Below are positions 13,057 through 59,222 of a stretch of DNA of 64,000 bases, in pieces (position 1 is the first letter of the stretch; each line of letters opens with the position of its first letter). Location of the stretch: positions 1,197,888 to 1,261,887 of the forward strand of contig OY288106.1 of the NCBI GenBank assembly GCA_958431155.1, read 5' to 3'. Both the position numbers and the translations under genes were made by a program. The stretch is from an uncultured candidatus Porisulfidus sp. GTDB taxonomy: Bacteria; Pseudomonadota; Gammaproteobacteria; Poriferisulfidales; Poriferisulfidaceae. The notes below the pieces were generated by a model. The model worked only from the letters and a program-made list of their open reading frames with translations, was not told the DNA's origin and ran no database searches.

Positions 13057-14136
13057 CTAGTCTGTCTCAGCCTCCACGTCTCCGCACTGGGCACGATGCC
13101 GCATGGCCTGGTCCATCAGCGTCAGGGCCAACATGGCCTCGGCAATCGGCACGGCGCGCAGACCCACGCAAGGATCGTGACGCCCCTTGGTTACGACTTC
13201 AGTCGCTTCCCCCTGCCGGTTGACCGTCCGGCCGGGAATCCGGATGCTCGAGGTCGGCTTGAAGGCCACGGCGACACGTAAATCCTGTCCGGAACTCAGT
13301 CCCCCCAAGGTCCCGCCTGCATGGTTGGACAAAAACCCCTCAGGCGTGATTTCATCCCGATGCTCGCTGCCGCGCTGCCCGACTACGGCGAAACCGTCGC
13401 CGATTCCCACTGCCTTGACCGCGTTGATGCTCATCATCGCCTGGGCAACCATGGCATCCAATCGCTCAAAAACAGGCTCGCCCCAGCCGACCGGCAAACC
13501 AGTCGCCTCCACTTCCACCCGTGCACCAATCGAGTCTCCCTCCTTGCGCAGGTCGTCCATGAACTGCTCCAATTCGGCAAGCTTCCCGGGCTCCGGAAAG
13601 AAGAACGGATTCGCTTCAACCGCCTCCCAATCCGTAGTCTCGGCGCGAACCGGGCCAACCTGCCGGACGCACCCGCGGATCGTCACGCCGTAGCGCTCGC
13701 GCAGCCATTTCCGGGCCACCGCTCCGGCCGCCACCCGTGTCGCCGTCTCCCGGGCAGAAGCCCGCCCGCCGCCGCAGTAATCGCGGATCCCGTATTTGTG
13801 CTGATAGGTATAGTCCGCGTGCCCCGGCCGGAACAGTTCACGCAACTCCGAATAGTCCTTGGATCGGGCATCCTGATTCTCGATCAGCAGCGCGATGGGG
13901 GTGCCGGTCGTCTTCCCCTCGAAGACTCCGGACAGGATCTTCACCTGATCCGGCTCTCGGCGCTGGCTGGTGTGTCGAGTCTTGCCTGGACGACGACGGT
14001 CCAGGTCGTGCTGCAGATCCGATTCTTCCAGCGCCAGATGCGGCGGACAACCGTCGATGATGCAACCGATGGAAGGACCATGGCTTTCACCAAATGAAGT
14101 GACGGCAAACAAAGTGCCGAAGGTGTTACCCGCCAT
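13057..14136 (-). CDS. aroC: Chorismate synthase
   Basis: [32 protein letters not shown]...GRASARETA are conserved AroC motifs; 359 aa. Confidence 0.95.
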
Positions 14137-14202
14137 GATGATTGGATTTTACACCGCACCGCCGCTACTTGGCCGAAAAAGCTTTTCTGTTTTTCGCATG
14201 TG

Positions 14203-14227
14203 CTTTGTCATATGCGTGTTACAAAAC
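14203..14227 (+). promoter_or_regulatory. Candidate Pho box upstream of the orphan pstS-like gene
   Basis: CTTTGTCATATGCGTGTTACAAAAC. The first half, TTGTCATA, matches CTGTCATA of the PhoB-box consensus; the second half, TGTTACA, matches only partially. It sits about 70-95 bp upstream of the pstS-like start. Confidence 0.3.
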
Positions 14228-14296
14228 TTGGATTTAATGCGCCAGACCAAGGGGTGTTCCCCATCAATCAACTTGAACGCATAGAGGATTTATCGA

Positions 14297-15322
14297 ATGA
14301 AATTGCGTATTTCCGCAGTCGTCCTGCTCGCGCTCGCCGCTTCGGCAGCCCAAGCCCGAGACCAGATCAACATAGTCGGTTCTTCTACCGTCTATCCTTT
14401 CGCCACCGTGGTAGCCGAAAAATTCGGCAAATCCACGGCTTTCAAGACTCCGAAGATTGAATCCACGGGTTCCGGCGGCGGCCTGAAACTGTTCTGTGCC
14501 GGCGTCGGCGTCAGCACTCCGGACATCACGAACTCTTCGCGCAAGATCAAGAGTAGAGAGGTCGAGAACTGCGGCAAGAACGGTGTCGGCGACGTCACCG
14601 AGGCCAAGATCGGCTACGACGGCATCGTCCTCGCCAACTCCAAGGCGGTCGCCCCGATGGAACTGACTCGGCGCGAGATTTTCCTGGCTCTGGCACGCGA
14701 AGTGCCGGACCCGGGCGGCGCAGAGTCTTTTGTCGCCAATCCCTACACCACCTGGAAGGATGTCAACCCGGCCCTGCCCGACACCAAGATCGAGGTGCTC
14801 GGCCCTCCCCCGACCTCCGGCACCCGGGATGCCTTCGCTGAACTCGCCCTGGAAGGCGGATGCAAGACCTTCCCCTGGATCAAGGCGATGAAGAAGAAGG
14901 ACAAGAAGATGTACAAATCCTACTGCCACTCCGTGCGCGAGGACGGCCATTACATCGAGGCGGGTGAGAACGACAACTTGATCGTTCAGAAGCTGACTAC
15001 CAACCCAAACGCCTTGGGCGTGTTCGGATTCAGCTTCCTGGACCAGAACTCCGACAAGGTTCAGGGCTCCATCATCGACGGCGTCGAGCCGACGTTTGAG
15101 GCCATTTCCGACGGCAGTTATCCGGTCTCTCGGCCGCTGTATTTCTACATCAAGAACGCCCATCTGGATGCCATCCCGGGTATTCGGGAATTCGTTGCCG
15201 AGTTCATGAGCGACAAGGCAAGCGGTGCCGATGGCTACCTGAACGAAAAGGGCATGATCCCGATGTCCGCCGAAGAGCGCGGAGATCTGGTGCCCCAGGT
15301 CACCTCGTTCACCCCGCTTTGA
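14297..15322 (+). CDS. Phosphate-binding periplasmic protein, PstS family, without adjacent pstCAB
   Basis: Signal peptide MKLRISAVVLLALAASAAQA followed by the INIVGSSTVYPF...GSGGG motifs of PstS-type phosphate binding proteins. Confidence 0.8.
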   Translation: MKLRISAVVLLALAASAAQARDQINIVGSSTVYPFATVVAEKFGKSTAFKTPKIESTGSGGGLKLFCAGVGVSTPDITNSSRKIKSREVENCGKNGVGDVTEAKIGYDGIVLANSKAVAPMELTRREIFLALAREVPDPGGAESFVANPYTTWKDVNPALPDTKIEVLGPPPTSGTRDAFAELALEGGCKTFPWIKAMKKKDKKMYKSYCHSVREDGHYIEAGENDNLIVQKLTTNPNALGVFGFSFLDQNSDKVQGSIIDGVEPTFEAISDGSYPVSRPLYFYIKNAHLDAIPGIREFVAEFMSDKASGADGYLNEKGMIPMSAEERGDLVPQVTSFTPL

Positions 15323-15345
15323 GCAAAGACTTCCAGAGTCTTCGA

Positions 15346-15375
15346 GAGGGCCGCGCATGCGGCCCTCTTTTTTTG
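15346..15375 (+). terminator. Rho-independent terminator downstream of the pstS-like gene
   Basis: GAGGGCCGCGCATGCGGCCCTC forms a perfect GC-rich hairpin and is followed by TTTTTTTG. Confidence 0.8.
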
Positions 15376-15466
15376 CCTTCGTAGCCTCGGAAATTCAGGT
15401 CAGGCCATTTCATCGGGAGCCCTGCAAACCAGTACACTATTGGGCCAAGCCCCGAAATTTTCCGAC

Positions 15467-18298
15467 ATGAAGCCCGCTCCCATTCCCAGCATCTTGATAG
15501 AGGAGGCAGAATCGGCCTTGGAGGATATCCAGTCTGCTCTTGATGGCGAACTCCTGAACACGAATCGATCGGCCCTTCTCAACCTGTTTGCCGCCAGCCC
15601 TTTTGCGGCCCGTCTTGCGCGCACTCAACCGGACTTGCTGGAGTCCGCCCTGCGCGACCCAGTCGCCAAGGATCTGGAACCCCCAGACCCCGAAACCGCG
15701 GAAGACGCAGACTTTGCGCGTTCTTTACGCCGAGCTCGGACGCGGGAGATGCTCCGCATCATGTTTCGGGACATCAACGGGCTCGCGGAACTGCCGGAAA
15801 CCCTGCACGATCTGAGCGCTTTCGCGGACCGCGCCGTGATGGGCGCCGCTGATTGGCACCGCTCCCGGATGAAGGAGTCCAGCCCAACCGACGAGAACGG
15901 TGAGCCGGTACCGTTCGTAGTCCTCGGCATGGGCAAGCTCGGCGGGGCGGAACTCAACTTCTCTTCCGACATTGATCTGATCTTCGCTTACCCGGACCCG
16001 GCTTCGGACCGTGAGCAGGCGCAATCCTATTTCATCCGGCTGGGACAGAAAACGATCAAGGCATTGGACGAAGTCACCGCCGATGGATTCGTGTTCCGCG
16101 TGGACATGAGGCTGCGCCCGTTCGGCTCCACCGGCAGTCTGGCGCTGCCATTCTCTTCCATGGAGGCCTATTACCAGAACCACGGGCGCGAGTGGGAGCG
16201 CTACGCGCTGATCAAGGCGCGGCCGCTGGGCGAGCCCACCGCCGCTGGTGCGGAACTGACTGACCTGCTCCGACCTTTCATCTTTCGGCGTTCCCTCGAT
16301 TTCCGGGTATTGGAAGAGTTGCGGACCATGAAGGCAAAGATGGAACGCCATGCACGCAAGGAAACTCTGGAGGACGATCTCAAGCACGGTCCCGGGGGAA
16401 TTCGCGAGGCTGAATTCATTGTGCAAAGTGCACAGTTGATTTTCGGCGGGAGGGAGTCGGTCCTTCAGCAAACTTCGTGGATGCGCGCACTGGAAGCGAT
16501 GAACCAGTGCGGCAAGCTCACCGACGGCGACGTGCAACTACTACTCGACGCCTATTCCACTCTGCGCACCATCGAGAACCGCCTGCAGATGATCGAGGAC
16601 CAGCAGACGCACACCCTGCCGCAAGATGAACTGGCGAGAGCGCGAATCCAGTTCGCGATGGGTTACCCGGACTGGTCGGAATTTATGGATGCACTCACCA
16701 TGCAACGGGTCAGCCTGCAATTGGAGTTCACCTGCCTGATGCGGGTGGAACTGGAACCAGAACAGGAACACCCTGAAGAACTAAAGACCCTATTGCACAT
16801 GATCGAGACCATCGGGCAGCAGGATGGCGACTTGGTCGGGCTAGAGGAAGTCTTGGGGAAAATGGGACTGGAAGACGGTGCGGAAGAGCCAGCGCGACGA
16901 CTGCACTCCACCATCTCTTCTTCAGCATGGCGCGTCCAAAACGCCAGTGGGCGCCACTACGCGTTGGCACTGATTCCGAAAATGATCGAAATCGCCTGTC
17001 GGCAGGCTGATTCAGCCCACGTGCTGAATCTCCTGTTCGATGTGCTGGAAGCCCTTCTGTATCGGCCCAATTGCATGGCCCTGCTGGCCGAGAACCCCCA
17101 AGCGCTGAATCTGCTGGCCGAGCTGGTCCGCCTCAGCCCGTGGGTACAGACCCAAATTTTGCGATCGCCCCACCTCATCGACGAACTGCTGGCACCAGAC
17201 ACACTGTTTGGAGAACGAACCCCGGAAATCCTGCAAAGAGTCTTGCAACTCGCCCTGCCCGACGACGAGGACGACCTGGAACAGCAGATGAAAGTCCTTC
17301 GCCAATTCCGTCAGTCCCAAACACTGCAAGTCGCCGCTTGCAACCTGGTTCACTCTAAATCCCTCTCGGACGTGAGCGACGAATTGACCTGGATTGCTGA
17401 AACCGTCACGGCCTGCGCCTGGGACTTGTCGATGCGCCAGCAACTCCAGCGTCACGGCCAACCCTGCTGCGTCGTGGACGGGCAGCGCCGTCCGGCTCAT
17501 TGCGCCATTCTGGCCTACGGCAAGTTCGGAGGACTCGAGATGGGGTTCAATTCCGACCTGGATCTGGTATTCGTCCATGACAGTGATGGCGAAGAACAGA
17601 TGACCGACGGGGAGAACCCGGTATACAACGAATACTTCTTCACCCGCGTGGTGCAGCGATTCATTCATATCATGGAAACCCTGACCCCCGACGGCACCCT
17701 GTACGAGATCGACCCCCGGTTGCGGCCCGGTGGGCAGTCCGGGCAGACGGTCTGCAGCCTGCATTACTACGAAAAATACCTGGAAGAAAAAGCCTGGACC
17801 TGGGAGCGTCAGGCCCTGGCGCGAGCACGGGCAGTGGCGGGCGATGAGGCGGTGCGAGAAGCTTTCGAGAAAGTCCGCGCACGGACTCTGTGCGTACCCC
17901 GCGAACCTGTTGAACTGCAAAAAGAGTTTGTGGACATGCGCCAGCGAATGCTGGAGGCTCATGTGCCCCAAACCGAATACTTCCACCTCAAGAATGACCC
18001 CGGCGGAATCACCGATCTGGAGTTCATGGTGCACTATAATGTGTTGCTTCACGCTGAAAGCCATCCGGAAATCATTGAGCCGACTGCCACAGTGATGATT
18101 CTGGACCGTCTGGCGCAATGCGGCCTGCTGGACACCGAAACCACTGAATTCCTGCGCGCCTGCTACTTCACCTACCGCGACCGGATACACGTACTCAGCC
18201 TGCAGGAGTTGCCGCCGCACTCTCCATCGGACGAGTTCGCAGACGAGCGCAAGAAAATTCGGGAACTTTGGGACAAGACCTTCAATCTGGCGACATGA
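15467..18298 (+). CDS. glnE: Glutamine synthetase adenylyltransferase / adenylyl-removing enzyme (bifunctional GlnE)
   Basis: About 945 aa with two nucleotidyltransferase modules, each carrying GMGKLGG.ELNFSSDIDLIF and GKFGG.EMGFNSDLDLVF. The start may be 15440 or the Met at 15467. Confidence 0.95.
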   Translation: MKPAPIPSILIEEAESALEDIQSALDGELLNTNRSALLNLFAASPFAARLARTQPDLLESALRDPVAKDLEPPDPETAEDADFARSLRRARTREMLRIMFRDINGLAELPETLHDLSAFADRAVMGAADWHRSRMKESSPTDENGEPVPFVVLGMGKLGGAELNFSSDIDLIFAYPDPASDREQAQSYFIRLGQKTIKALDEVTADGFVFRVDMRLRPFGSTGSLALPFSSMEAYYQNHGREWERYALIKARPLGEPTAAGAELTDLLRPFIFRRSLDFRVLEELRTMKAKMERHARKETLEDDLKHGPGGIREAEFIVQSAQLIFGGRESVLQQTSWMRALEAMNQCGKLTDGDVQLLLDAYSTLRTIENRLQMIEDQQTHTLPQDELARARIQFAMGYPDWSEFMDALTMQRVSLQLEFTCLMRVELEPEQEHPEELKTLLHMIETIGQQDGDLVGLEEVLGKMGLEDGAEEPARRLHSTISSSAWRVQNASGRHYALALIPKMIEIACRQADSAHVLNLLFDVLEALLYRPNCMALLAENPQALNLLAELVRLSPWVQTQILRSPHLIDELLAPDTLFGERTPEILQRVLQLALPDDEDDLEQQMKVLRQFRQSQTLQVAACNLVHSKSLSDVSDELTWIAETVTACAWDLSMRQQLQRHGQPCCVVDGQRRPAHCAILAYGKFGGLEMGFNSDLDLVFVHDSDGEEQMTDGENPVYNEYFFTRVVQRFIHIMETLTPDGTLYEIDPRLRPGGQSGQTVCSLHYYEKYLEEKAWTWERQALARARAVAGDEAVREAFEKVRARTLCVPREPVELQKEFVDMRQRMLEAHVPQTEYFHLKNDPGGITDLEFMVHYNVLLHAESHPEIIEPTATVMILDRLAQCGLLDTETTEFLRACYFTYRDRIHVLSLQELPPHSPSDEFADERKKIRELWDKTFNLAT

Positions 18299-21963: not shown

Positions 21964-22051
21964 GCCGAGATGGCGGAATTGGTAGACGCGCCGGACTCAA
22001 AATCCGGTGGGGTAGTCCCCCGTGTGGGTTCGAGTCCCACTCTCGGTACCA
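21964..22051 (+). tRNA. tRNA-Leu (anticodon CAA)
   Basis: GCCGAGATGGCGGAATTGGTAGACGCG...CCGGA-CT-CAA-AA-TCCGG, a long variable arm, GGTTCGAGTCC T-loop and 3' ACCA. Type II tRNA with a G1:U72 wobble in the acceptor stem. Confidence 0.85.
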
Positions 22052-50076: not shown

Positions 50077-50164
<88 letters not shown>

Positions 50165-50804: not shown

Positions 50805-51284
50805 ATGCGTCTGAACCTCCGCCGGATCCAGGAAAGGCTCCTGTTGCCGTTCACACTGATGGCGGCAGCCTGCCTGCTGCTCCCCGCGTGCAGCGGGGAG
50901 AGGACCGACCTGACTGCTACTCAAGCCTGGATCCTTGAACCTTCCTCCGAAGGCATTTCCACCGGCGGACTGACCGTCCACAACCGCACTAATGAGGCGC
51001 GGGTCCTGCAGCACATCTTGGCGGCCGACTTCAGGCAGGCAGAAATTCGCACAAAGGAGGGCGCCGGTTCGACCTCCGGTCTCCGGCCTTCCATCATCGT
51101 TGAGGCCGACCGAACCACCGAACTGCCGCCGGACGGCATGATTTTCCTTCTGGAGGGGCCCGAACGTTCCCTTCACGCCGGTGACGAGACCTTGCTTGCA
51201 CTTCACTTTGACGACGGTAAGGCAATTTTCGTCAATGTGGAAATTCGGGCCTCTCCTCCATCTTCCTCCAAGTCGGAACTATGA
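50805..51284 (+). CDS. Lipoprotein of unknown function, possibly DUF461/PCuAC-like periplasmic metal chaperone, co-transcribed with tupBCA
   Basis: Lipobox LLLPACSG after a signal peptide; beta-rich about 140-aa mature domain. The stop overlaps the tupB start. Family call is tentative. Confidence 0.45.
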   Translation: MRLNLRRIQERLLLPFTLMAAACLLLPACSGERTDLTATQAWILEPSSEGISTGGLTVHNRTNEARVLQHILAADFRQAEIRTKEGAGSTSGLRPSIIVEADRTTELPPDGMIFLLEGPERSLHAGDETLLALHFDDGKAIFVNVEIRASPPSSSKSEL

Positions 51285-51982
51285 GCGATTTCGGTGACGC
51301 CCTGGTGACCGCAGCCGGTCTCTTAACCGGACTGAATCCGAATCTCCTGGAAATCATCCGGTTGTCGCTGTTCGTCACCCTGACTGCGGTCTCCATTGCC
51401 ACCGTAATTGGTATTCCACTGGGTGGGTTGCTTGCAGTCAAACGATTTCCGGGACGTGCGTTTATCGTGCTCGTGATTGATACGTTCATGGGGTTGCCGC
51501 CTGTTGTGGTCGGATTAATCGTCTACCTGTGGCTGTCGCGCTCCGGCCCTCTCGGCGTGCTGGGCCTGTTATACACTCCGACCGCGATGATCATCGCCCA
51601 GTGCCTGCTGGTGACGCCCATCATCGCCGCGCTGTCGCGTCAAGTCATTGCCGATGCCCATGGCCAGTACGACGAACAGCTTCGTTCTCTGGGCGCGGCG
51701 CGCTGGCAGCGAATCGCGACCTTGCTTTGGGAGACCCGAACCAGCCTTCTTGTGACGATTCTGGCCGGCTTCGGGCGGGCTAATGCAGAAGTCGGCGCCG
51801 TCATGATCGTGGGCGGAAACATCAACCACGTCACCCGCGTGATGACCACCACGGTAGCCTACGAGACCAGCCGCGGAAACCTCACCCAGGCGTTGGCGCT
51901 GGGCATCGTATTGATCCTGATCGCCATGCTGCTGACCCTGCTGCTGCATCAGTTGCGCAGACTCAACGTGGAACCCGGATGA
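51281..51982 (+). CDS. tupB: Tungstate/molybdate ABC transporter permease
   Basis: 233 aa, about six TM segments, with ABC permease EAA-like loop (LGAARWQRIATLLWETRTSLLV). Adjacent to the TupA-type binding protein. Confidence 0.7.
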   Translation: MSDFGDALVTAAGLLTGLNPNLLEIIRLSLFVTLTAVSIATVIGIPLGGLLAVKRFPGRAFIVLVIDTFMGLPPVVVGLIVYLWLSRSGPLGVLGLLYTPTAMIIAQCLLVTPIIAALSRQVIADAHGQYDEQLRSLGAARWQRIATLLWETRTSLLVTILAGFGRANAEVGAVMIVGGNINHVTRVMTTTVAYETSRGNLTQALALGIVLILIAMLLTLLLHQLRRLNVEPG

Positions 51983-52722
51983 TGCGCCAACCTCCGGATT
52001 CCCTGTTCCCGCTCACCGTCTCCGGCCTTGATTTTTCTGTCGGAGGAGAGCAACTGCTGTCCGGCTTGTCGTTTGAGTTGCTAGGGAAAGGTTGCACGGC
52101 AATTCTTGGTCCGAACGGTTCCGGCAAGACCCTGCTGCTGCGTCTGTGCCATGGAATGCTCACACCCACAGGCGGCTCCATCCACTGGGGGGATGCCACA
52201 CCGGCCCAAGCCCTGCCATCGCAGGCCATGGTCTTCCAATTGCCCGCCATGCTCAACCGCAGCGTGTGGGCAAATATCGACTATGCGCTGAGGCTGCGCC
52301 GTGTTTCACGCACCGAGCGGCAGCGGCTTGTCCAAGAAGCTGTCGAGCTCTGCGGCCTGACTGAGGTCGTTGGGCGCAATGCCCGGGTCCTGTCCGGCGG
52401 TGAACGGCAGAAGCTGGCCATCGCGCGAGCCTGGATCACTCGGCCCCGCGCCCTGCTGATGGACGAACCCACCTCGGAACTGGACCCGCTCGCCACTCGG
52501 GAGATCGAAGCCATGATCCAGAGAGTCGTCGCCCAAGGTGTTCGCGTCATTCTGGCCACGCACGACATGAACCAAGTCCGTCACCTGGCGGATGACGTCC
52601 TTTTTTTGGAATATGGCCGCCTACGGGCCCACCTGCCGATCGGGGATTTTCTGAATTACCAAGGCGATGACACCATGCGCGATTTTGTCACTCATCCCAC
52701 CCGTTCCAGAACCATCCCGTGA
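51979..52722 (+). CDS. tupC: Tungstate ABC transporter ATP-binding protein
   Basis: Walker A GPNGSGKTLL, signature LSGGERQKLAIARA, Walker B LLMDEPTSELD. Confidence 0.75.
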   Translation: MMRQPPDSLFPLTVSGLDFSVGGEQLLSGLSFELLGKGCTAILGPNGSGKTLLLRLCHGMLTPTGGSIHWGDATPAQALPSQAMVFQLPAMLNRSVWANIDYALRLRRVSRTERQRLVQEAVELCGLTEVVGRNARVLSGGERQKLAIARAWITRPRALLMDEPTSELDPLATREIEAMIQRVVAQGVRVILATHDMNQVRHLADDVLFLEYGRLRAHLPIGDFLNYQGDDTMRDFVTHPTRSRTIP

Positions 52723-53540
52723 ACGCCATGCGCCTCGTGTCCGTTTTTGCCTTGAGTTGCTTGGTACTGCCCTGTGCGGTGGCTGAGACGGAATTCCTGA
52801 CGATTGCGTCCACCACCTCTACGGACCACTCGGGCCTGTACGATCACCTGCTCCCGATCTACGAAAATAAAGCTGGCGTGAGTTTCCGAGTCGTGGCCGT
52901 CGGGACCGGGCAAGCCATCCGCAATGCGATGCGGGGGGATGCCGATTTGCTGATTGTTCACCACCGCGAATCGGAAGAGCGTTTCGTCGTCGAAGGCTAC
53001 GGGCTGCGACGGGACGACCTGATGTACAACGAGTTCATGCTGATCGGGCCGCGCGAGGATCCTGCAAAGGTTGCGAAAGCAGGCAACATTGAGGAAGCCT
53101 TACGCCGGATTTCTCTGTCGGGTTTTACTTTCGTTTCTCGTGGCGATGACAGCGGAACCCACAAGCGAGAGTTGGAGTTATGGGAAAGAGCAAGCGTTCA
53201 GGTACGCCCCGCCAGCGGCGACTGGTACTGGGAAGCCGGGGCCGGCATGGGTCCCACCTTGAACACTGCCGCTGCACGCAATGCCTATGTGTTGAGTGAT
53301 GGCGCCACCTGGGCTGCATTCGGCAATCGGCAGGATCTCGTGGCGCTATACCGGGATGGCCCCCTGCTGCACAACCAATACGGCATCATCGTAGTCAATC
53401 CCAACCGCCACCCGCACGTCAAGGAAAAACAGGCAAAAGAATTTTCGGAATGGCTACTGTCGGAAGAAGGACAGAAAGCGATCGCAACTTTCAAAATCAA
53501 CGGAAAACAGGTGTTTTTCCCAAACGCCCGGCCCCGATAA
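52719..53540 (+). CDS. tupA: Tungstate-binding periplasmic protein TupA
   Basis: Signal peptide plus the diagnostic TupA motif IASTTSTDHSGL (TTSTxxSGL) and a PBP type-2 fold. Confidence 0.75.
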   Translation: MNAMRLVSVFALSCLVLPCAVAETEFLTIASTTSTDHSGLYDHLLPIYENKAGVSFRVVAVGTGQAIRNAMRGDADLLIVHHRESEERFVVEGYGLRRDDLMYNEFMLIGPREDPAKVAKAGNIEEALRRISLSGFTFVSRGDDSGTHKRELELWERASVQVRPASGDWYWEAGAGMGPTLNTAAARNAYVLSDGATWAAFGNRQDLVALYRDGPLLHNQYGIIVVNPNRHPHVKEKQAKEFSEWLLSEEGQKAIATFKINGKQVFFPNARPR

Positions 53541-53556
53541 CAATCTATGCCTTAGC

Positions 53557-53868
53557 TCAAGCAAGTTTCTCTCTGTACGGAGCAACCTCGATATCAGCTG
53601 CCTGCTCGCGAGCTTGGGCAATGTCGTAACTGTTCTGCATCCTCAGCAGTGTAGCCATCGATACCCCAAAGGCTTTTTCGATCCGGATCGCCATTTCCGA
53701 CGAAAGGCGCACATGCTCGTGGAGCAATGCAGACAGTGCGGGGCGCGAAACCCCGAGCACCCGCGCTGCGTCGGTCACCGACAAGCCCAGCGGCTCGACA
53801 ATCTCATACCTCACGAATTCTCCCGGGTGGACCGGATTCTTCATTCGAATATTCTGCGTTTTACTCAT
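53557..53868 (-). CDS. HigA-family XRE-type HTH protein (antitoxin-like transcriptional regulator), last gene of the island operon
   Basis: 103 aa. PVHPGEFVRYEIVEPLGLSVTDAARVLGVSRPALSALLHEHVRLSSEMAIRIEKAFGVSMATLLRMQNSYDIAQAR matches the HigA/VapI antidote family. The start overlaps the stop of the 1321-aa gene by 4 bp. Confidence 0.8.
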   Translation of the reverse strand: MSKTQNIRMKNPVHPGEFVRYEIVEPLGLSVTDAARVLGVSRPALSALLHEHVRLSSEMAIRIEKAFGVSMATLLRMQNSYDIAQAREQAADIEVAPYREKLA

Positions 53869-56800
53869 TGCTGATTCCCTGTCCTTCTTACTTTCTCTAT
53901 ATCTTTGCGTATGTCCTCCGCAACTTCTTCAATTTCCCGAGCCACTTTAGGTTCTTTGCCCATTTCCTTTTCAAGCGCAACTGTAAACGGTATAAGTAGT
54001 TTGGCTGATGGCGAAGATTGAACGAAATCGTTGGTATGAGCGGCCCCTTGAGAAACTGTAAAATCGATCAAGGCATATATGGCCTCACTAAGGAGAAATT
54101 CGCAATTGGGTAAGAGCGTGAGTGCCGTTTTAATATCCTGCCCAGCTTGGGGTAAGTCATCACATGCTAGGTGTGCTCGCGATCGAATCAGATAACCCTC
54201 ACACTGGTAGCAACTATAGATTTGCTCCCCATACCGATCAAACAGCAAATTCACCGTATTAATTACCTCATCCAAATGGCCTTGTACTCTTGCACTATTT
54301 GCTAACCGAAGAAAAGCAATAGCAACAGGGTGACGAAGTATGGGATTACTGTTTGTTCCAAAGCGTTGAATCAACTCTTGCCAAACTGCCTTTGCTTGCT
54401 CCTCTTGCCTAAGATCGCTAAGAGCTAGGCCTTTGTAGATTAACATGCGCGCGACTTGGGTATGAAACTGAGGTGCATTTCTGTCGTCGAAGCGTTGCAT
54501 CAGTTGGTCACAAACGGTGATCGTGTCTTCGGGGTAACCCAACTCAAGAAGTGCGGCTCCCTTGTATACAAGGGCCTTCGCAATTGCTTTCAGCATCACA
54601 GGCTTATTGCTACTGCCAAACCGCCGTACAACTTCATCACAGGCGGGAATCGCTTCTTCAAAACGGTTTAATTTAAGGAGTACGCTTGCTTTATTAGTTA
54701 AAGCTTGCACAACAACTCTCAGAATATCAGGCTCATCATTGTCGCCAAACTGCTGTGCAATCTCATCACAGATAATAGCCGCTTCTTCAAACCGATTTGA
54801 CTCATTAAATCTTTGCCCTATATCGAGTAGTAAACGCGCAGCTTGACTACAAATCTCAGGCGCGTCAATACCTCCGCCGAACTGGCGAGCCACTTCACGG
54901 CAAACAGCGATTGCCTGTTCGGAACGATTCAACTCGACAAGCGATTGCACCTTGTTTCCATAAGCATGCGCGACTGCACTAAAAACTTCCGGCACATCAC
55001 TGCTACCAAACTGGCGTATCACTTCGTCACTTACAGTAGCTATCTCTTCAAGGCGATTCAACTCGCCGAGCATGCTTCCTTTATTAGCAAGAGCATGCGC
55101 CACCAGTACAAGCATTTCTGGTTTATCGTTATAGCCGAACAAGTCCACAATCTCGTCACATACAGAAATTGTTTCTTCGAAGTTACCTAACTCGCTAAGC
55201 ACACCACCCTTTTTATATAGTGCCTGTGCTGTAATCTCAAGCAGTTCGGGCATGTCATTGCCACTAAATCGCTGGACAACTTCATCATAGACTACGAGGG
55301 CTTTCCTCGGCTGGTTTAATTTTTCGAGGGCGTTCCCCTTTTCGGTCAATGCCTGGGCAACCACTCTAAGAACTGCCGGCACACCAGTGTCACCAAAGCG
55401 TTGCTCAATCTCGTCACACACAGAAATTGTTTCTTCGAAGTTACCTAACTCGCTAAGCACATCACCCTTTTTAAACAGTGCCTGTGCTGTAATCTCAAGC
55501 AGTTCGGGCATGTCATTGCCACTAAATCGCTGGACAACTTCACCATAGACTACAAGGGCTTTTTCCGGCTGGTTTAATTTTTCGAGGGCGTTCCCCTTTT
55601 CGGTCAATGCCTGGGCAACCACTCTAAGAACTGCTGGCACATCAGTGTCACCAAAGCGTTGCTCAATCTCATCATAGGCGTCGATTGTTTCTTTGGGCTG
55701 ATTTAATTTGATCAGCGTAAGCCCTTTGAAAAAGATAGCCCTCGCGACCTGCTCGACGATCTTCGGTAGATTACTGTCACTGAATCGGTTGACAACCTCA
55801 TCATAAGCCGCGATTTCTTTATCCGGTTGACCTAATGCGTGAAGTGAAACCCCTTTGCTAATCAAAGCTAGTGCGACTTGTTCATGAATCTCAGATACTT
55901 CACTTTCGCCAAATCGACGTACGACCTCATCACAAACGATAATTGCCTCATCGAGCCGATTCGAACTTGCAAGAGTACGTGCTTTAGTTGTAAGGGCCTG
56001 CGCCACTATCTCTAGAACGGCTGGCACTTTACTGTCACCAAACCGGAGCACTACCTCGTCATGGGATACAAGTTCCTCGTCATATTGCTTCGATATGCCG
56101 AGCGTAACACCTTTCAACAAGAGAGCATTAGCAACCTGCTTAGCGAGTTGAGGAGCGTCACTGTCATCGAACTGCCGTGCAATTGTTTCACAAGCGACAA
56201 TCGTTTCCCCGGGTCGTTCCATTTTTAGAAACGAAATACCTGCAGTAATAATTTCTTTTGCCGCCTCCACACGAGCCGACAGCGAATCGTCTATTTCCAA
56301 ACGTTTTAATGTGGAACGAATGATTGCGTCTATGTTTTTCGCTTGACCCTCTTCGGCCACTACGGAGGCTTGCTTAATAGAAACCTTCGCAGGTACTTGC
56401 CCAGCAAGTTTTGTCACATACTGTGGAGAATGTGTGATCGGTCCTAGATTGTCTAGTTTTAATTTGAGAGAAACAGAGTCTGCGGCATCCTCAGACGCAA
56501 CCTTTGGATCAAAACTTTCCGCAAACTCCTCGGGAACAATCGACAATAACTCCTCACGATATTCGGCGAGTACAGGAAGGTCAATCAATTTAATAAACGC
56601 AGCCTGATGAAATGGCATTATCTCCGGCTCCAAGCCATCTGTCTCCCGGATCATGCGGGAAACCAAATCCTTGAGCTGAATCGCCGAATAATATGCATCC
56701 ATGAAGCGAATAAGGGCTTCAATCATTGGTGTTGGTGTTCGGGAACGTCGTAGCAGGTAGTAGATGTTATAGAGTCGCTCTGTCAGATAGTACAGTTTCC

Positions 56801-57830
56801 GCCGAGCCCCACCGCCGACGACCTCTACCGCTCCCCGTTCTACCAAACGGCGAAGCTGAGCACTACTTTGACTAGCATCAAGTCGAGTTCGAGTCGCAAC
56901 TTGACGCGCACTCGCTGGCTCCCACAAATCAGCGAGCGCCAAATACACGCGCCTTTCCTGAGGAGCAAGTACTTCTATGTGGCTCTTAAAGTACTCGGTC
57001 AGATCATCGATTAGCTCCATCAAGTCTGCCATGAAGTCGCGAAACGACAACTCAGCCCCGAATCGGGCAACGATAGAAAGGAGCCTAGGACTACCTCCGG
57101 TAAGAATCTGCAATCCGCGCATTGTCTCTGGGGGGCGATGTTGGCCGGAGACATGCTTCCACAGAACTGCGCATTCCTCTATGCAAAGAGGACGTAAAGT
57201 TTGACTTACAAGAAGATCATAGAAAGCGTGGTTGGATTTATCAATCTCATCAAAGCGAGCGGTCGCACTAGCCAACAGAATGATCCGGGGCTCTGTTTGA
57301 AGGACTTGGCGCAATTGCCACCCAGCATCTGGGTCTGACATGTCCCTGAACATCATGTTCAAGTTCTCAACGATCAAAATGAGTCGTTTCTTTTGCTGGC
57401 TTGAGAAGTCCAGAAGAGAACTAAGACAACGTTTACCGAGCATCCGATCATCGGGAGTATTCCGCAGTTCTTCAACGGTGAGGCTTAGGTTATCTTCCCC
57501 TTCCGGGTACTGTGCTTGATCTGCCAATCGAGACAAAGCTTCCAGCCAGAATTCACCTGCGGTAGCAACTTCGTAACTTTCTTCTGCAAAAACGATCGGG
57601 AAAAAAGAAGATGATAGTGCGGGGTCCCGGCGAATCTCAGCCGCTACTCGAAGGAGAAGGCTGGTCTTACCACAACCACGGGGGCCGATCACCAATCGGT
57701 GTGGGTTTGAATTTCTATCGCATTCGCGCAACATTTCAACAATCGACGCGAATTCATGCGTCCGCACGCAAAATGATGCAATCAACTCATCATCAGTAAG
57801 AAAACCAGGGTTATATTTCACTGTTTTCAT
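53865..57830 (-). CDS. STAND-like P-loop NTPase (AAA_16/PF01637-type ATPase) fused to a large array of about 43-residue alpha-helical tandem repeats; no recognisable effector domain
   Basis: 1321 aa. N-terminus FCVRTHEFASIVEMLRE...RLVIGPRGCGKTSLLLRV (Walker A) and LILIVENLNMM (Walker B-like), then a helical/winged-helix region. Residues about 520-1150 are about 15 repeats of xxVxRFGDSDVPxxLxxVAxALxxKGxxLxxLNRxEEAIxVCDE. GC about 47-50%, against about 62% in flanking DNA. Confidence 0.75.
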   Translation of the reverse strand: MKTVKYNPGFLTDDELIASFCVRTHEFASIVEMLRECDRNSNPHRLVIGPRGCGKTSLLLRVAAEIRRDPALSSSFFPIVFAEESYEVATAGEFWLEALSRLADQAQYPEGEDNLSLTVEELRNTPDDRMLGKRCLSSLLDFSSQQKKRLILIVENLNMMFRDMSDPDAGWQLRQVLQTEPRIILLASATARFDEIDKSNHAFYDLLVSQTLRPLCIEECAVLWKHVSGQHRPPETMRGLQILTGGSPRLLSIVARFGAELSFRDFMADLMELIDDLTEYFKSHIEVLAPQERRVYLALADLWEPASARQVATRTRLDASQSSAQLRRLVERGAVEVVGGGARRKLYYLTERLYNIYYLLRRSRTPTPMIEALIRFMDAYYSAIQLKDLVSRMIRETDGLEPEIMPFHQAAFIKLIDLPVLAEYREELLSIVPEEFAESFDPKVASEDAADSVSLKLKLDNLGPITHSPQYVTKLAGQVPAKVSIKQASVVAEEGQAKNIDAIIRSTLKRLEIDDSLSARVEAAKEIITAGISFLKMERPGETIVACETIARQFDDSDAPQLAKQVANALLLKGVTLGISKQYDEELVSHDEVVLRFGDSKVPAVLEIVAQALTTKARTLASSNRLDEAIIVCDEVVRRFGESEVSEIHEQVALALISKGVSLHALGQPDKEIAAYDEVVNRFSDSNLPKIVEQVARAIFFKGLTLIKLNQPKETIDAYDEIEQRFGDTDVPAVLRVVAQALTEKGNALEKLNQPEKALVVYGEVVQRFSGNDMPELLEITAQALFKKGDVLSELGNFEETISVCDEIEQRFGDTGVPAVLRVVAQALTEKGNALEKLNQPRKALVVYDEVVQRFSGNDMPELLEITAQALYKKGGVLSELGNFEETISVCDEIVDLFGYNDKPEMLVLVAHALANKGSMLGELNRLEEIATVSDEVIRQFGSSDVPEVFSAVAHAYGNKVQSLVELNRSEQAIAVCREVARQFGGGIDAPEICSQAARLLLDIGQRFNESNRFEEAAIICDEIAQQFGDNDEPDILRVVVQALTNKASVLLKLNRFEEAIPACDEVVRRFGSSNKPVMLKAIAKALVYKGAALLELGYPEDTITVCDQLMQRFDDRNAPQFHTQVARMLIYKGLALSDLRQEEQAKAVWQELIQRFGTNSNPILRHPVAIAFLRLANSARVQGHLDEVINTVNLLFDRYGEQIYSCYQCEGYLIRSRAHLACDDLPQAGQDIKTALTLLPNCEFLLSEAIYALIDFTVSQGAAHTNDFVQSSPSAKLLIPFTVALEKEMGKEPKVAREIEEVAEDIRKDIEKVRRTGNQQ
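55151..55666. repeat. Near-perfect 258-bp tandem duplication, two copies, inside the repeat-array coding region
   Basis: 55151-55408 and 55409-55666 differ at only about 10 positions (about 96% identity). Each copy encodes two consecutive 43-aa repeats (FGDTDVPAVLRVVAQALTEKGNALEKLNQP[E/R]KALVVY[G/D]EVVQRFSGNDMPELLEITAQAL[F/Y]KKG.VLSELGNFEETISVCDEIEQR). Confidence 0.85.
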
Positions 57831-57853
57831 GAGATCCTCTTATGCGTTTACTT

Positions 57854-59107
57854 CTAACGAGACATAATTGGGATAAAGTTTTGTCCATACCGAACGCTCC
57901 ACCAGTCTTCAAGCAGACCTGAAATGAAACGGTAACCGCCGCTTTGCCTTTCCAGATACCCATCATGTTCAAGCAAATAAAGCACATCTTCGATAATAAC
58001 CGGATGGGCTCCGGCTTTGACCTCTGCTCTGAGGTGGCGACTGTACTGGTCAATCACGTCATCACTAAGTAAACCACCACCCACGGCAGCCTCCGTCAGC
58101 AATTCCAGAGCAACTCGGTATTCTTCTGTCCTCAGCACCACCCGCAACCGTCCTTGATAATGCTCTAAATCCACCTGCCCCCGCACAGATAGCATTTCAT
58201 TTTCGTATACCTGATCCACATCGTTCAACGAAGCCCGAGTCCGATTTTCACGTCGTAGGTGTTCATGCAGGTACCCGAAAAACTGTTGTATGTGATGCGG
58301 TACATGACACCGCAGACGGCGGCACATGGCCATACGAATGTCAGGGGGAAGCCCGAGCCCATACGCTTCTGCCAATTCGGCAAGGCAGGAAGACGCAGTG
58401 TCTTCGCTCCACGGTTTCAAATCGCAGGGTGCAAAAATGTTTACCTGTGCACTGAGTCCCGCCTGTCGCAGGATAGGCTCCAAACCCACGCTGCCGGAAA
58501 CAATCAGAACGATGCGCCCACGATGCCTCTGGGCGTTCTTTCTCAACCAGCTTAGAAATTTGTCCGTTGCCCGCTTGCCTTCGGTCGTTATATCGTCGCC
58601 ATTCTCTCGTAGCAACCGGCTAACAAAAATTGGCAACTCATCAATGGCCAGCACAACCCGCTGATTATTTTCCGCAAGAGCCGCAATAATATCGTCGCCT
58701 TTACGCCACTGGTTTCCTGCGGCAATTCCTGCGCGCAACTGTACCTGCAATTCTGAGATAGATACGTTATCCACTCGCCCCCCGATCTCCTTCAGGGCGT
58801 TAGAAAAACCAAGCCGGATCCGGCGCCATGCCCCTTTGAGCGATCTGGATTGGGCACCGATTTCGGCGATGGCATCCGCAGGATCAGAAGCATCCTCAAG
58901 ATCAACAAAGATCGTTTCAAATGTCCCTTCCTCTGCCAAGCGCCGCAATAACTCCCTGACTAGGCTCGTTTTTCCCATGCGCCGCGGCGCGGTGATCAGC
59001 GTATGAATTCCATCCCTTGCACGTTCGGAAAGCACTTCAAGTTCTTCGCCCCGATTATAGAAACGGTCTCCATCCACCCAATTTGCCCCTGCTTTTCTCA
59101 ATGACAT
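57854..59107 (-). CDS. AAA+ ATPase (PF01637 'archaeal ATPase'-type) with C-terminal DUF234 domain; first gene of the island operon
   Basis: 417 aa. FYNRGEELEVLSERARDGIHTLITAPRRMGKTSLVREL (F.GRE.EL motif plus Walker A), VLAIDELPIF (Walker B), and a C-terminal ...YLERQSGGYRFISGLLEDWW that matches the DUF234 Y.F.DP.f..W terminus. It is a paralog of the N-terminal ATPase of the downstream 1321-aa gene. Confidence 0.7.
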   Translation of the reverse strand: MSLRKAGANWVDGDRFYNRGEELEVLSERARDGIHTLITAPRRMGKTSLVRELLRRLAEEGTFETIFVDLEDASDPADAIAEIGAQSRSLKGAWRRIRLGFSNALKEIGGRVDNVSISELQVQLRAGIAAGNQWRKGDDIIAALAENNQRVVLAIDELPIFVSRLLRENGDDITTEGKRATDKFLSWLRKNAQRHRGRIVLIVSGSVGLEPILRQAGLSAQVNIFAPCDLKPWSEDTASSCLAELAEAYGLGLPPDIRMAMCRRLRCHVPHHIQQFFGYLHEHLRRENRTRASLNDVDQVYENEMLSVRGQVDLEHYQGRLRVVLRTEEYRVALELLTEAAVGGGLLSDDVIDQYSRHLRAEVKAGAHPVIIEDVLYLLEHDGYLERQSGGYRFISGLLEDWWSVRYGQNFIPIMSR

Positions 59108-59117
59108 AGCCTTTTCC

Positions 59118-59161
59118 CAACGAATTCGTTGCCATCATTATAGTTGGCAACGAATTCGTTG
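59118..59161. promoter_or_regulatory. Two copies of the perfect 14-bp palindrome CAACGAATTCGTTG, 30 bp apart, immediately upstream of the island operon start; candidate operator
   Basis: Copies at 59118-59131 and 59148-59161. The second extends to TTGGCAACGAATTCGTTGTCAA, a 22-bp near-palindrome. The first copy overlaps the presumptive RBS of the 57854..59107 gene. Confidence 0.5.
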
Positions 59162-59222
59162 TCAAGATCTGTCATACTCTTCGGATTTTCTCTAGTAATC
59201 GAGAGCCTTTATCTGTTCTTTC

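Follow-up and report, generated by a model that had tools for sequence, protein, structure and literature searches.

A tandem duplication of two repeat units in the TPR-like array of a STAND-like ATPase from an uncultured candidatus Porisulfidus sp.

Whether a nearly exact repetition inside a gene is a genuine duplication, how old it is and what it would mean for the encoded protein are the questions raised by a gene in a 64,000-nucleotide stretch of DNA from an uncultured candidatus Porisulfidus sp. (Gammaproteobacteria; Poriferisulfidales; Poriferisulfidaceae). The stretch, henceforth referred to as the window, spans positions 1,197,888 to 1,261,887 of contig OY288106.1 in assembly GCA_958431155.1, and all positions below are counted from its first letter. 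The gene encodes a protein of 1321 residues, henceforth referred to as the long protein, with an N-terminal ATPase and a C-terminal array of helical repeats that resemble the tetratricopeptide repeat (TPR). A first reading of the window, made from the sequence without database searches and referred to here as the sequence-only reading, had pointed to the repetition within this array and described it as recent; it linked variation in repeat number to diversifying selection, for example in pathogen or phage recognition, and took the array as the probable determinant of specificity, evolving by unequal recombination. The repetition proved to be a genuine duplication, in which two units of a 15-unit TPR-like array are repeated in tandem and in frame.

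The duplication was delimited by two methods. Tandem Repeats Finder (TRF), run on the 50–60 kb interval, reported a single array at 55148–55674 with a period of 258, 2.0 copies, 95% matches, 0% indels and a score of 970. Alignment of the two copies with each other gave 11 mismatches over 258 columns (95.7% identity) and no gaps. Both results agree with the sequence-only reading, which had described two co-linear copies of 258 bp at about 96% identity; its figure of about 10 substitutions was close to the actual count of 11. The duplication lies in frame within the only long open reading frame (ORF) at that place. The block amounts to 86 residues and comprises units 5 and 6 of the array (aa 725–810), which are repeated as units 7 and 8 (aa 811–896), so that the array is expanded by two 43-residue units as had been proposed. 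The duplicated unit pairs share 91–93% of their protein sequence and 94% of their DNA, as compared with 25–55% and 42–65%, respectively, for the remaining unit pairs in the same array. The 11 substitutions are spread over nine codons, of which four carry synonymous changes and five carry amino-acid replacements, namely D730/G816, E756/R842 (three bases), G763/D849, F786/Y872 and D790/G876. The two 86-residue blocks therefore differ at five residues and are 94% identical. The consensus offered in the sequence-only reading had marked four of these variable residues but missed the D/G difference at 730/816.

Since misassembly is classically associated with tandem repeats of about 0.5 kb, it was considered whether one block had been falsely expanded or a longer array collapsed. 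Such an error is unlikely because the sites that distinguish the copies lie no more than 70 nt apart, a spacing that ordinary reads can resolve, and because an orthologue from an independent metagenome assembly (L001, described below) shows the identical two-block layout. The reading frame is also unbroken across the duplication, and the source contig spans 1.59 Mb. An assembly artefact is accordingly regarded as extremely improbable.

The duplicated units belong to an array that occupies aa 523–1198 and is followed by a helical cap. Unit borders between aa 553 and 1198 were set by anchoring on the recurrent motif R-F-G. In the AlphaFold model of aa 515–1321, which has a predicted local distance difference test (pLDDT) score of 92.5, helices of 20 and 15 residues alternate strictly. 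Each unit is laid out as helix A at positions 8–27, a turn, and helix B at positions 31–43 plus positions 1–2 (R-F) of the next unit, with a GxSxxP loop. Pfam TPR_1 was matched at 90.6 bits, and TPR_8, TPR_14 and TPR_2 also exceeded their cut-offs on summed score. A Foldseek search with the array returned generic TPR superhelices (Ctr9, Ski3, Naa15 and OGT at E 1e-10 to 3e-7, and also APC subunits), with no specific relative among the matches. In structural terms, the duplication would lengthen the predicted alpha-solenoid by two hairpins and add surface to it.

The origin of the duplication was addressed by comparison with three informative relatives: P0002/L001 (87% identical, 1364 aa), P0003/L002 (64%, 1321 aa) and P0008 (66%, 902 aa). 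The L002 protein is 80% identical to the window protein across the N-terminal 540 residues, compared with the 64% overall. The L001 and L002 genes share the chromosomal site of the window gene, with the end of an ABC permease gene upstream, and the L001 gene is followed downstream by PBP/ABC genes as in the window. Scans of genomes, metagenomes and viral sequences yielded no orthologue nearer than these relatives; the best matches were 51–65% identical in the best-matching segment. L002 contains one copy of the block and displays the ancestral tails, …NEIEQ (unit-4 type) before the block and …CDEIVR (unit-6 type) after it. The end of unit 6 in the window has the sequence …SVCDEI/EQ (the slash marks the joint), that is, a unit-6 tail fused to the last two residues of a unit-4 tail. 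The only homology shared at the original breakpoints is the 10-nt sequence GA(T/C)GAGATTG. Read from these sequences, the joint appears to be the footprint of unequal exchange or slippage at the 10-nt microhomology GAyGAGATTG.

The age of the duplication was examined with L001, which carries the same duplicated block and the same hybrid joint as the window. The duplication likely predates the split between the two for that reason. The synonymous divergence (dS) between block copies is 0.09 in the window and 0.07 in L001, while dS between the window and L001 is 0.13–0.21 in the block and 0.35 in the ATPase domain. Among the informative sites defined by the window and L001 copies, eight group the copies by genome, (A,B) versus (A',B'), none by orthology, and one is crossed. 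Since L001 has the block, yet the copies group by genome, the description of the duplication as recent holds at best for the last homogenisation and not necessarily for the origin. Block-type sequence has in addition replaced the unit-4 tail and the unit-9 head in L001. The most economical account is one older duplication, followed by ongoing gene conversion or unequal exchange, and as a whole this evolutionary account is considered probable. The duplication would have arisen via unequal recombination or replication slippage at the 10-nt microhomology, most likely before the window lineage separated from that of its syntenic, 87%-identical orthologue; the copies would since have been held about 96% alike through conversion or unequal exchange with each other, and L001 would have acquired further converted tracts at both edges of the block.

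The same data were weighed against truly recent duplications that arose independently in the window lineage and in L001, each by unequal exchange at the same DEI microhomology and with no conversion. Such parallel events would explain why the dS values within each genome (0.07–0.09) are lower than those between genomes (0.13–0.21), why three window-derived and four L001-derived substitutions each occur in both copies of their own genome, and why the edges of the repeated tract are unlike between the two. They would, however, require the same two units to be duplicated twice with the joint …SVCDEI/EQRFGDT on about 10 nt of homology, and, with 258-bp repeats already in place, exchange between them comes about much more readily than a further de novo event. 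The unit-4 tail and the unit-9 head that were overwritten in L001 moreover resemble conversion tracts themselves. Independent duplications are for these reasons judged unlikely. It counts against an older duplication with subsequent conversion that two informative genomes are too few to tell it from two parallel events.

An older duplication that has since been homogenised would not be the only change in the length of this array. The sequence-only reading had proposed a comparison of repeat number among orthologues, and this comparison gave 16 full units in L001, 15 units of different content in L002 and 6 in P0008, against the 15 of the window. Changes among these close relatives consist of whole in-register units. 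The window is without one 43-residue unit (RFGGSNEP…CDEVxR) at approximately 54623/54624, the boundary of units 12 and 13, that is present in both L001 and L002. From the alignment, this is an in-frame loss of a single unit and a second change of copy number in the same array. L002 has an additional unit following unit 3, and P0008 contains in-register hybrid joins, including one of a unit-9 head with a unit-12x tail.

Similar observations were made across the wider family. Among the best 120 homologues, 7–17 units were detected by a hidden Markov model (HMM) of the unit, with the N-terminal half unit included in the count. Of these 120 proteins, 93 have some pair of units at 70% identity or more; the best pair has a median identity of 88%, and in many of the arrays nearly all units are 80–100% self-identical. 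TRF arrays with a period that is a multiple of 129 nt (129, 258, 387) were found in 25 of 86 fetched loci; L076, with 13.2 copies at 88% DNA identity, and L077, with 14.4 at 89%, are examples. In L011, from a gammaproteobacterial metagenome-assembled genome, the homologue is followed downstream by a separate gene (positions 13660–16980 of that locus) in which a 129-nt unit is repeated 25.7 times in tandem at 92% identity, a far longer self-identical array of the same period. The duplication in the window is a mild instance of this family-wide property. The array would diversify by gain, loss and homogenisation of units together with point changes at variable positions of helix A.

Selection was analysed separately for the duplicated block and for the family. 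Within the arrays of 48 self-similar proteins, variation is greatest at unit positions 12, 13, 16, 19, 20, 23, 24, 26 and 27, all of which lie in helix A with i/i+3/i+4 spacing and form one helical face in the pLDDT 92.5 model. Codon variants were counted as minimum numbers over 66 distinct units from nine self-similar arrays, with no modelling of recombination. The nine helix-A positions carry 122 non-synonymous and 21 synonymous variants (omega-like ratio 1.78; binomial p 0.007 versus neutrality), compared with 109 and 120 at the other 34 unit positions (omega-like ratio 0.33). Between the window and L001, omega is 0.2–0.46 in the repeats, higher than the 0.11 of the ATPase domain. The arrays of the family show the kind of signature that the sequence-only reading would lead one to expect, in which high internal identity and copy-number variation occur together with non-synonymous variation concentrated on one helix face. 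In TPR proteins, helix A lines the binding groove (PMC5642895). The array is most likely a ligand-recognition module because its variable residues lie on one face of helix A, the helix that lines the groove in TPR proteins.

Several points count against this reading of the array and of the duplication. The hypervariable positions were picked by their amino-acid variability, and the omega-like contrast is thus partly circular. Placement of the variable face as the concave one would follow by analogy from general TPR knowledge. The two block copies gave dS 0.090, dN 0.031 and dN/dS 0.34 by the NG86 method, from 11 differences only, and of the five replacements, two (at unit positions 19 and 23) coincide with family-hypervariable positions, where about one is expected. 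The duplication event could be selectively neutral. Positive selection on the two copies was rejected on the ratio of 0.34, and the copies give no evidence of diversifying selection on this duplication itself.

The part of the long protein that precedes the array was characterized by domain searches, homologue alignment and structure prediction. It comprises a P-loop ATPase (approximately aa 20–260), a winged helix (approximately 288–350) and a helical linker with disorder (441–497). The AlphaFold model of aa 1–552 has a mean pLDDT of 77 and shows a P-loop sheet, a helical domain, the winged helix, further helices and the disordered segment. Pfam AAA_16 was matched at 36.2 bits, above its cut-off of 32.6, while ATPase_2 (PF01637) reached 28.8 bits, below its gathering cut-off of 33.2; matches to nSTAND1 and ORC-CDC6-like families were also under threshold. 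By structure comparison, the fold of the ATPase is nearest to the PF01637 'archaeal ATPase'/ORC-Cdc6 group and equally near to NB-ARC. Searches of PDB sequences with the ATPase part, the partner ATPase described below and the duplicated repeats returned nothing significant. The winged helix was identified by a TrmB-like winged helix-turn-helix match (E 9.4e-5), and its model consists of helices at 290–302, 308–315 and 319–331 and strands at 335–338 and 346–349.

Two further motifs were found in the alignment of 80 homologues. In the S-A-T-x-R strand I183ILLASATAR192, residues A187, A189, T190 and R192 are invariant, and in the GGxP motif L243TGGSPRL250, residues G245, G246 and P248 are invariant. 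A strand ending in Arg and a GxP motif are reportedly part of the STAND definition by Leipe et al. in 2004. The long protein contains Walker A and Walker B motifs, the Arg-ending sensor-1-like strand, the GxP motif and a winged helix followed by a C-terminal repeat array, in keeping with these STAND features. As a STAND-like P-loop ATPase that carries a winged helix and, C-terminally, a TPR-like array, the long protein agrees with the sequence-only reading, which had spoken of STAND NTPases and of a repeat sensor array. The coordinates of all features are provided in Table 1.

Table 1 Features of the long gene, the duplicated block and the surrounding cassette, in window coordinates.
Feature	Position	Strand	Basis and details
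Long gene, 1321 aa	53865–57830	−	ORF and translation; Pfam; AlphaFold models
Walker A, G49-P-R-G-C-G-K-T-S57	57660–57686	−	Near-invariant in 80-sequence alignment
Walker B strand, R149-L-I-L-I-V-E155-N	57363–57386	−	E155 invariant in 80 homologues; strand 149–154 in model
Winged helix, about aa 288–350, three helices and a beta hairpin	56781–56969	−	Pfam TrmB at aa 290–348, and model
N-terminal half unit capping the array, aa 523–552	56175–56264	−	Unit HMM match at aa 523; helices in model
Array of 15 full units, aa 553–1198 (14 of 43 aa and one of 44 aa)	54237–56174	−	Unit parsing, AlphaFold, Foldseek
Block copy 1 in gene order	55409–55666	−	Units 5–6; the units as such are aa 725–810, window 55401–55658
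Hybrid joint, probably from recombination, D806-E807-I808-E809 (GACGAGATTGAG)	55404–55415	−	Stacked alignment with the single-copy relative L002
Block copy 2 in gene order	55151–55408	−	Units 7–8; aa 811–896, window 55143–55271 and 55272–55400
Partner gene, 417-aa P-loop ATPase	57854–59107	−	Weak ATPase_2, AAA_22 and AAA_16 matches
Promoter and operator	59118–59165	−	−35 TTGACA at 59165–59160, 17-nt spacer, −10 TATAAT at 59142–59137
HigA-family antitoxin-like helix-turn-helix gene, 103 aa	53557–53868	−	TIGR02607, E 7.5e-28

The long gene would be the long member of a horizontally spread, self-regulated cassette of two ATPases. Of 75 related loci, 70 have a gene for the partner ATPase immediately upstream of the long gene; the related loci come from Alpha- and Gammaproteobacteria, Binatia, Latescibacterota, Thermodesulfobacteriota, Spirochaetia, Dehalococcoidia, Acidobacteriota and other taxa. 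Across phyla, the cassette is conserved at 55–69% identity. A search with the N-terminal module gave 1,502 clusters (at 50% identity) at E ≤ 1e-30. Among eight metagenome matches, five have accession prefixes of Mediterranean sponge metagenomes; the prefixes MKWU, LXNI and LXNJ denote sponge metagenomes (PMC5099237, PMC5649159). Neither cassette ATPase was assigned to a family by NCBIfam. It was also considered whether the two ATPases are paralogues. Their weak Pfam matches are similar, yet BLASTP of the 417-residue against the 1321-residue protein aligned the P-loop region only (E 0.019), and the sequences do not justify this interpretation.

The promoter upstream of the partner gene is of the consensus sigma-70 type and is overlapped by two perfect 14-bp palindromes, CAACGAATTCGTTG, at 59148–59161 and 59118–59131. 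Of 68 loci drawn from many phyla (L003–L075), 64 have the corresponding pattern CAAC-N6-GTTG in the 130 nt that precede the partner gene, as compared with a background rate of 0.015 per 136 nt. At least two copies are present in 46 of those loci, invariably 15 or 30 nt apart. The conserved operator points to a DNA-binding regulator encoded by the cassette itself, probably one of the winged helices.

At the other end of the cassette, there is a 4-nt overlap between the HigA-like gene and the stop codon of the long gene, and only the two closest relatives have such a gene with their cassettes. An ORF for a HigB-like toxin was not observed. The three genes coincide with a low-GC island at approximately 53.7–59.2 kb, with 45–54% GC as compared with 58–60% in the flanks, which is consistent with horizontal acquisition of the cassette. 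A search for direct repeats flanking the island gave only short matches of chance quality. The window contains two tRNA genes (21964–22048 and 50077–50161), one of which lies approximately 3.4 kb from the cassette, past ABC-transporter and PCuAC genes. Between the window and L001, dS is 0.74–0.90 for the flanking ABC-transporter genes (on the 51281–53540 side of the window) and 0.20–0.44 for the cassette genes (53557–59107), where it falls from the partner ATPase toward the 3' end. The ancestor of the two cassettes seems to be more recent than that of their surroundings, which might reflect recombinational replacement of alleles, unless the dS values are distorted by low-GC codons.

The genes around the cassette were compared in eight annotated neighbourhoods, six of which place it in or beside known defence systems. 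In three unrelated genomes, the cassette is nested within an Hma (helicase-methylase-ATPase) locus (L087, 6676–11486; L088, 6742–11762; L089, 8001–11828), flanked on one side by HmaC/DUF499 and a PtuA-like ATPase and on the other by HmaB/DUF1156 and an SNF2-PLD helicase (HmaA). In L089, the stretch that separates the long gene from the divergent genes upstream contains just a 60-residue ORF and no called gene for the partner ATPase. The cassette abuts a Type IIG restriction-modification gene in L076, has RES, AbiEi, TnpB and methylase genes close by in L078, and is surrounded by transposases in L077. Within 9 kb of the cassette, L001 carries a Type IIG fragment and a SIR2 gene; beyond the ABC-transporter and PCuAC genes, they replace the content found on the tRNA side in the window.

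These neighbourhoods suggest that the long protein may act as a sensor switch resembling a NOD-like receptor (NLR) in a setting of conflict or defence, and the defence part of this proposal is given an even chance. The case for pathogen or phage recognition, as suggested in the sequence-only reading, is one of gene neighbourhood only, and several observations count against it. The long protein has no effector domain, the ATPase beginning at approximately aa 20 and the last 120 residues forming the helical cap. Neither cassette protein matches a known PADLOC defence family, the long protein giving only weak mad8 and mREase_IV matches. The family was not found in viral contigs in the viral scan, and the immediate neighbours of the cassette in the window are ABC-transporter genes rather than defence genes. 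The units of the window array, with a mean identity of 38%, are among the more diverged and are not currently reshuffled at a high rate. The more specific proposal, that this uncharacterised cassette of an approximately 420-residue ATPase and a long STAND-like ATPase, spread over at least nine bacterial phyla or classes and in many cases derived from marine-sponge metagenomes, is a bacterial immune-receptor family with no fused effector that is tuned by repeat recombination, is put forward tentatively and with less than even confidence.

A role outside of immunity was weighed against these data. The long protein could instead be a regulator, scaffold or symbiosis protein, either a MalT/LAL-like switch that acts on the operator or a 'eukaryote-like' TPR protein of sponge symbionts, and the duplication would then be a neutral length polymorphism. 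The winged helix and the strongly conserved palindromic operator array that accompanies the cassette fit a regulator, the many homologues from sponge metagenomes fit a symbiosis protein, and the lack of an effector domain and of a PADLOC family match, together with the low dN/dS between the copies, likewise count in favour of such a role. Defence systems are nonetheless present in six of eight neighbourhoods, three of which have the cassette nested in Hma, and autoregulation is likewise common in defence operons. The low GC and the sharing of the cassette across phyla at 55–69% identity also speak against such a role, and hypervariability of helix A with an excess of non-synonymous changes better fits a conflict receptor than a housekeeping regulator. 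A regulatory, scaffolding or symbiotic function is considered rather doubtful on balance.

The receptor-like reading of the long protein finds its closest parallel in the NLR-like proteins of fungi and bacteria whose repeats have high internal conservation (HIC) (PMC4986451; 10.1101/2020.01.06.895854). Both have an NTPase followed by superstructure-forming repeats, polymorphism of repeat number, concerted evolution of units and variable positions on one helix face. Dyrka et al. (2014) defined HIC as more than 85% identity across at least 100 aa (PMC4986451); in the window, the two 86-residue copies at 94% reach this level, and only that block does so, the array mean being 38%. Polymorphism and concerted evolution are represented by the 6, 15, 15 and 16 full units of close relatives and by the eight-to-none grouping of sites by genome. 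The hypervariable pattern of the family is that reported by Dyrka et al. for the TPR repeats of fungal NLRs, in which particular helix positions are hypervariable (PMC4986451), and a comparable repeat pattern has been anticipated for bacterial NLR-like proteins (10.1101/2020.01.06.895854). The long protein differs from these proteins in that its NTPase is not NB-ARC or NACHT by Pfam, having an AAA_16 match and an ATPase_2-like fold, and in its 43-residue unit, its lack of an N-terminal effector or amyloid motif and its two-ATPase operon.

The antiviral STAND NTPases of the Avs/AVAST type (PMC13581612) share with the long protein a STAND-type core, a large C-terminal sensor of alpha-helical repeats and a defence-island context. 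The long protein, however, has no fused effector and no PADLOC match to Avs, its array is a regular one of 43-residue units rather than an irregular fold-specific sensor, and an obligate second ATPase gene accompanies it. By the defining features tested, it is not a member of Avs. The PF01637 proteins PAB2304 (PDB 2qen) and SSO1545 (PDB 2fna) are without a long TPR-like array, and RADAR RdrA, which is related to PF01637, is partnered with a deaminase rather than with a second ATPase. MalT/LAL-type STAND regulators (PMC6468293) differ in that the long protein is without a C-terminal LuxR-type helix-turn-helix, so that the internal winged helix is the sole candidate for DNA binding, and in that the context of the cassette is one of defence islands and mobile elements, not a metabolic regulon.

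At the level of the repeat, the period of 43 residues compares with 34 in the canonical TPR. The nearest described class is '42PR', a 42-residue TPR-like repeat (Marold et al. 2015; kinesin light chain TPR; PMC5642895). There, too, both helices exceed those of the 34-residue TPR in length, internal identity is very high in natural examples, and helix A lines the concave groove (PMC5642895). The array in the window differs by its period, by its helix A of 20 and helix B of 15 residues, and by having no detectable similarity to solved structures.

Taken by itself, the duplication is ordinary; what makes it useful is the access that it gives to the family. HIC repeats, polymorphism of repeat number, concerted evolution and hypervariable groove positions are already known from fungal NLRs and have been noted for bacterial NB-ARC/TPR and NACHT/WD proteins. 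The distinctive features here are an AAA_16-like sequence with a PF01637-like fold, a 43-residue unit, no fused effector and an obligate second ATPase. If the tuned-receptor reading is true, the cassette would represent a new family of bacterial immune receptors that carry no fused effector and adjust their specificity through recombination of repeats. Whether intracellular receptors in bacteria are re-tuned by repeat reshuffling, as has been proposed for the allorecognition NLRs of fungi, is a testable question, for which the cassette offers experimental handles in its conserved operator and its obligate partner ATPase.

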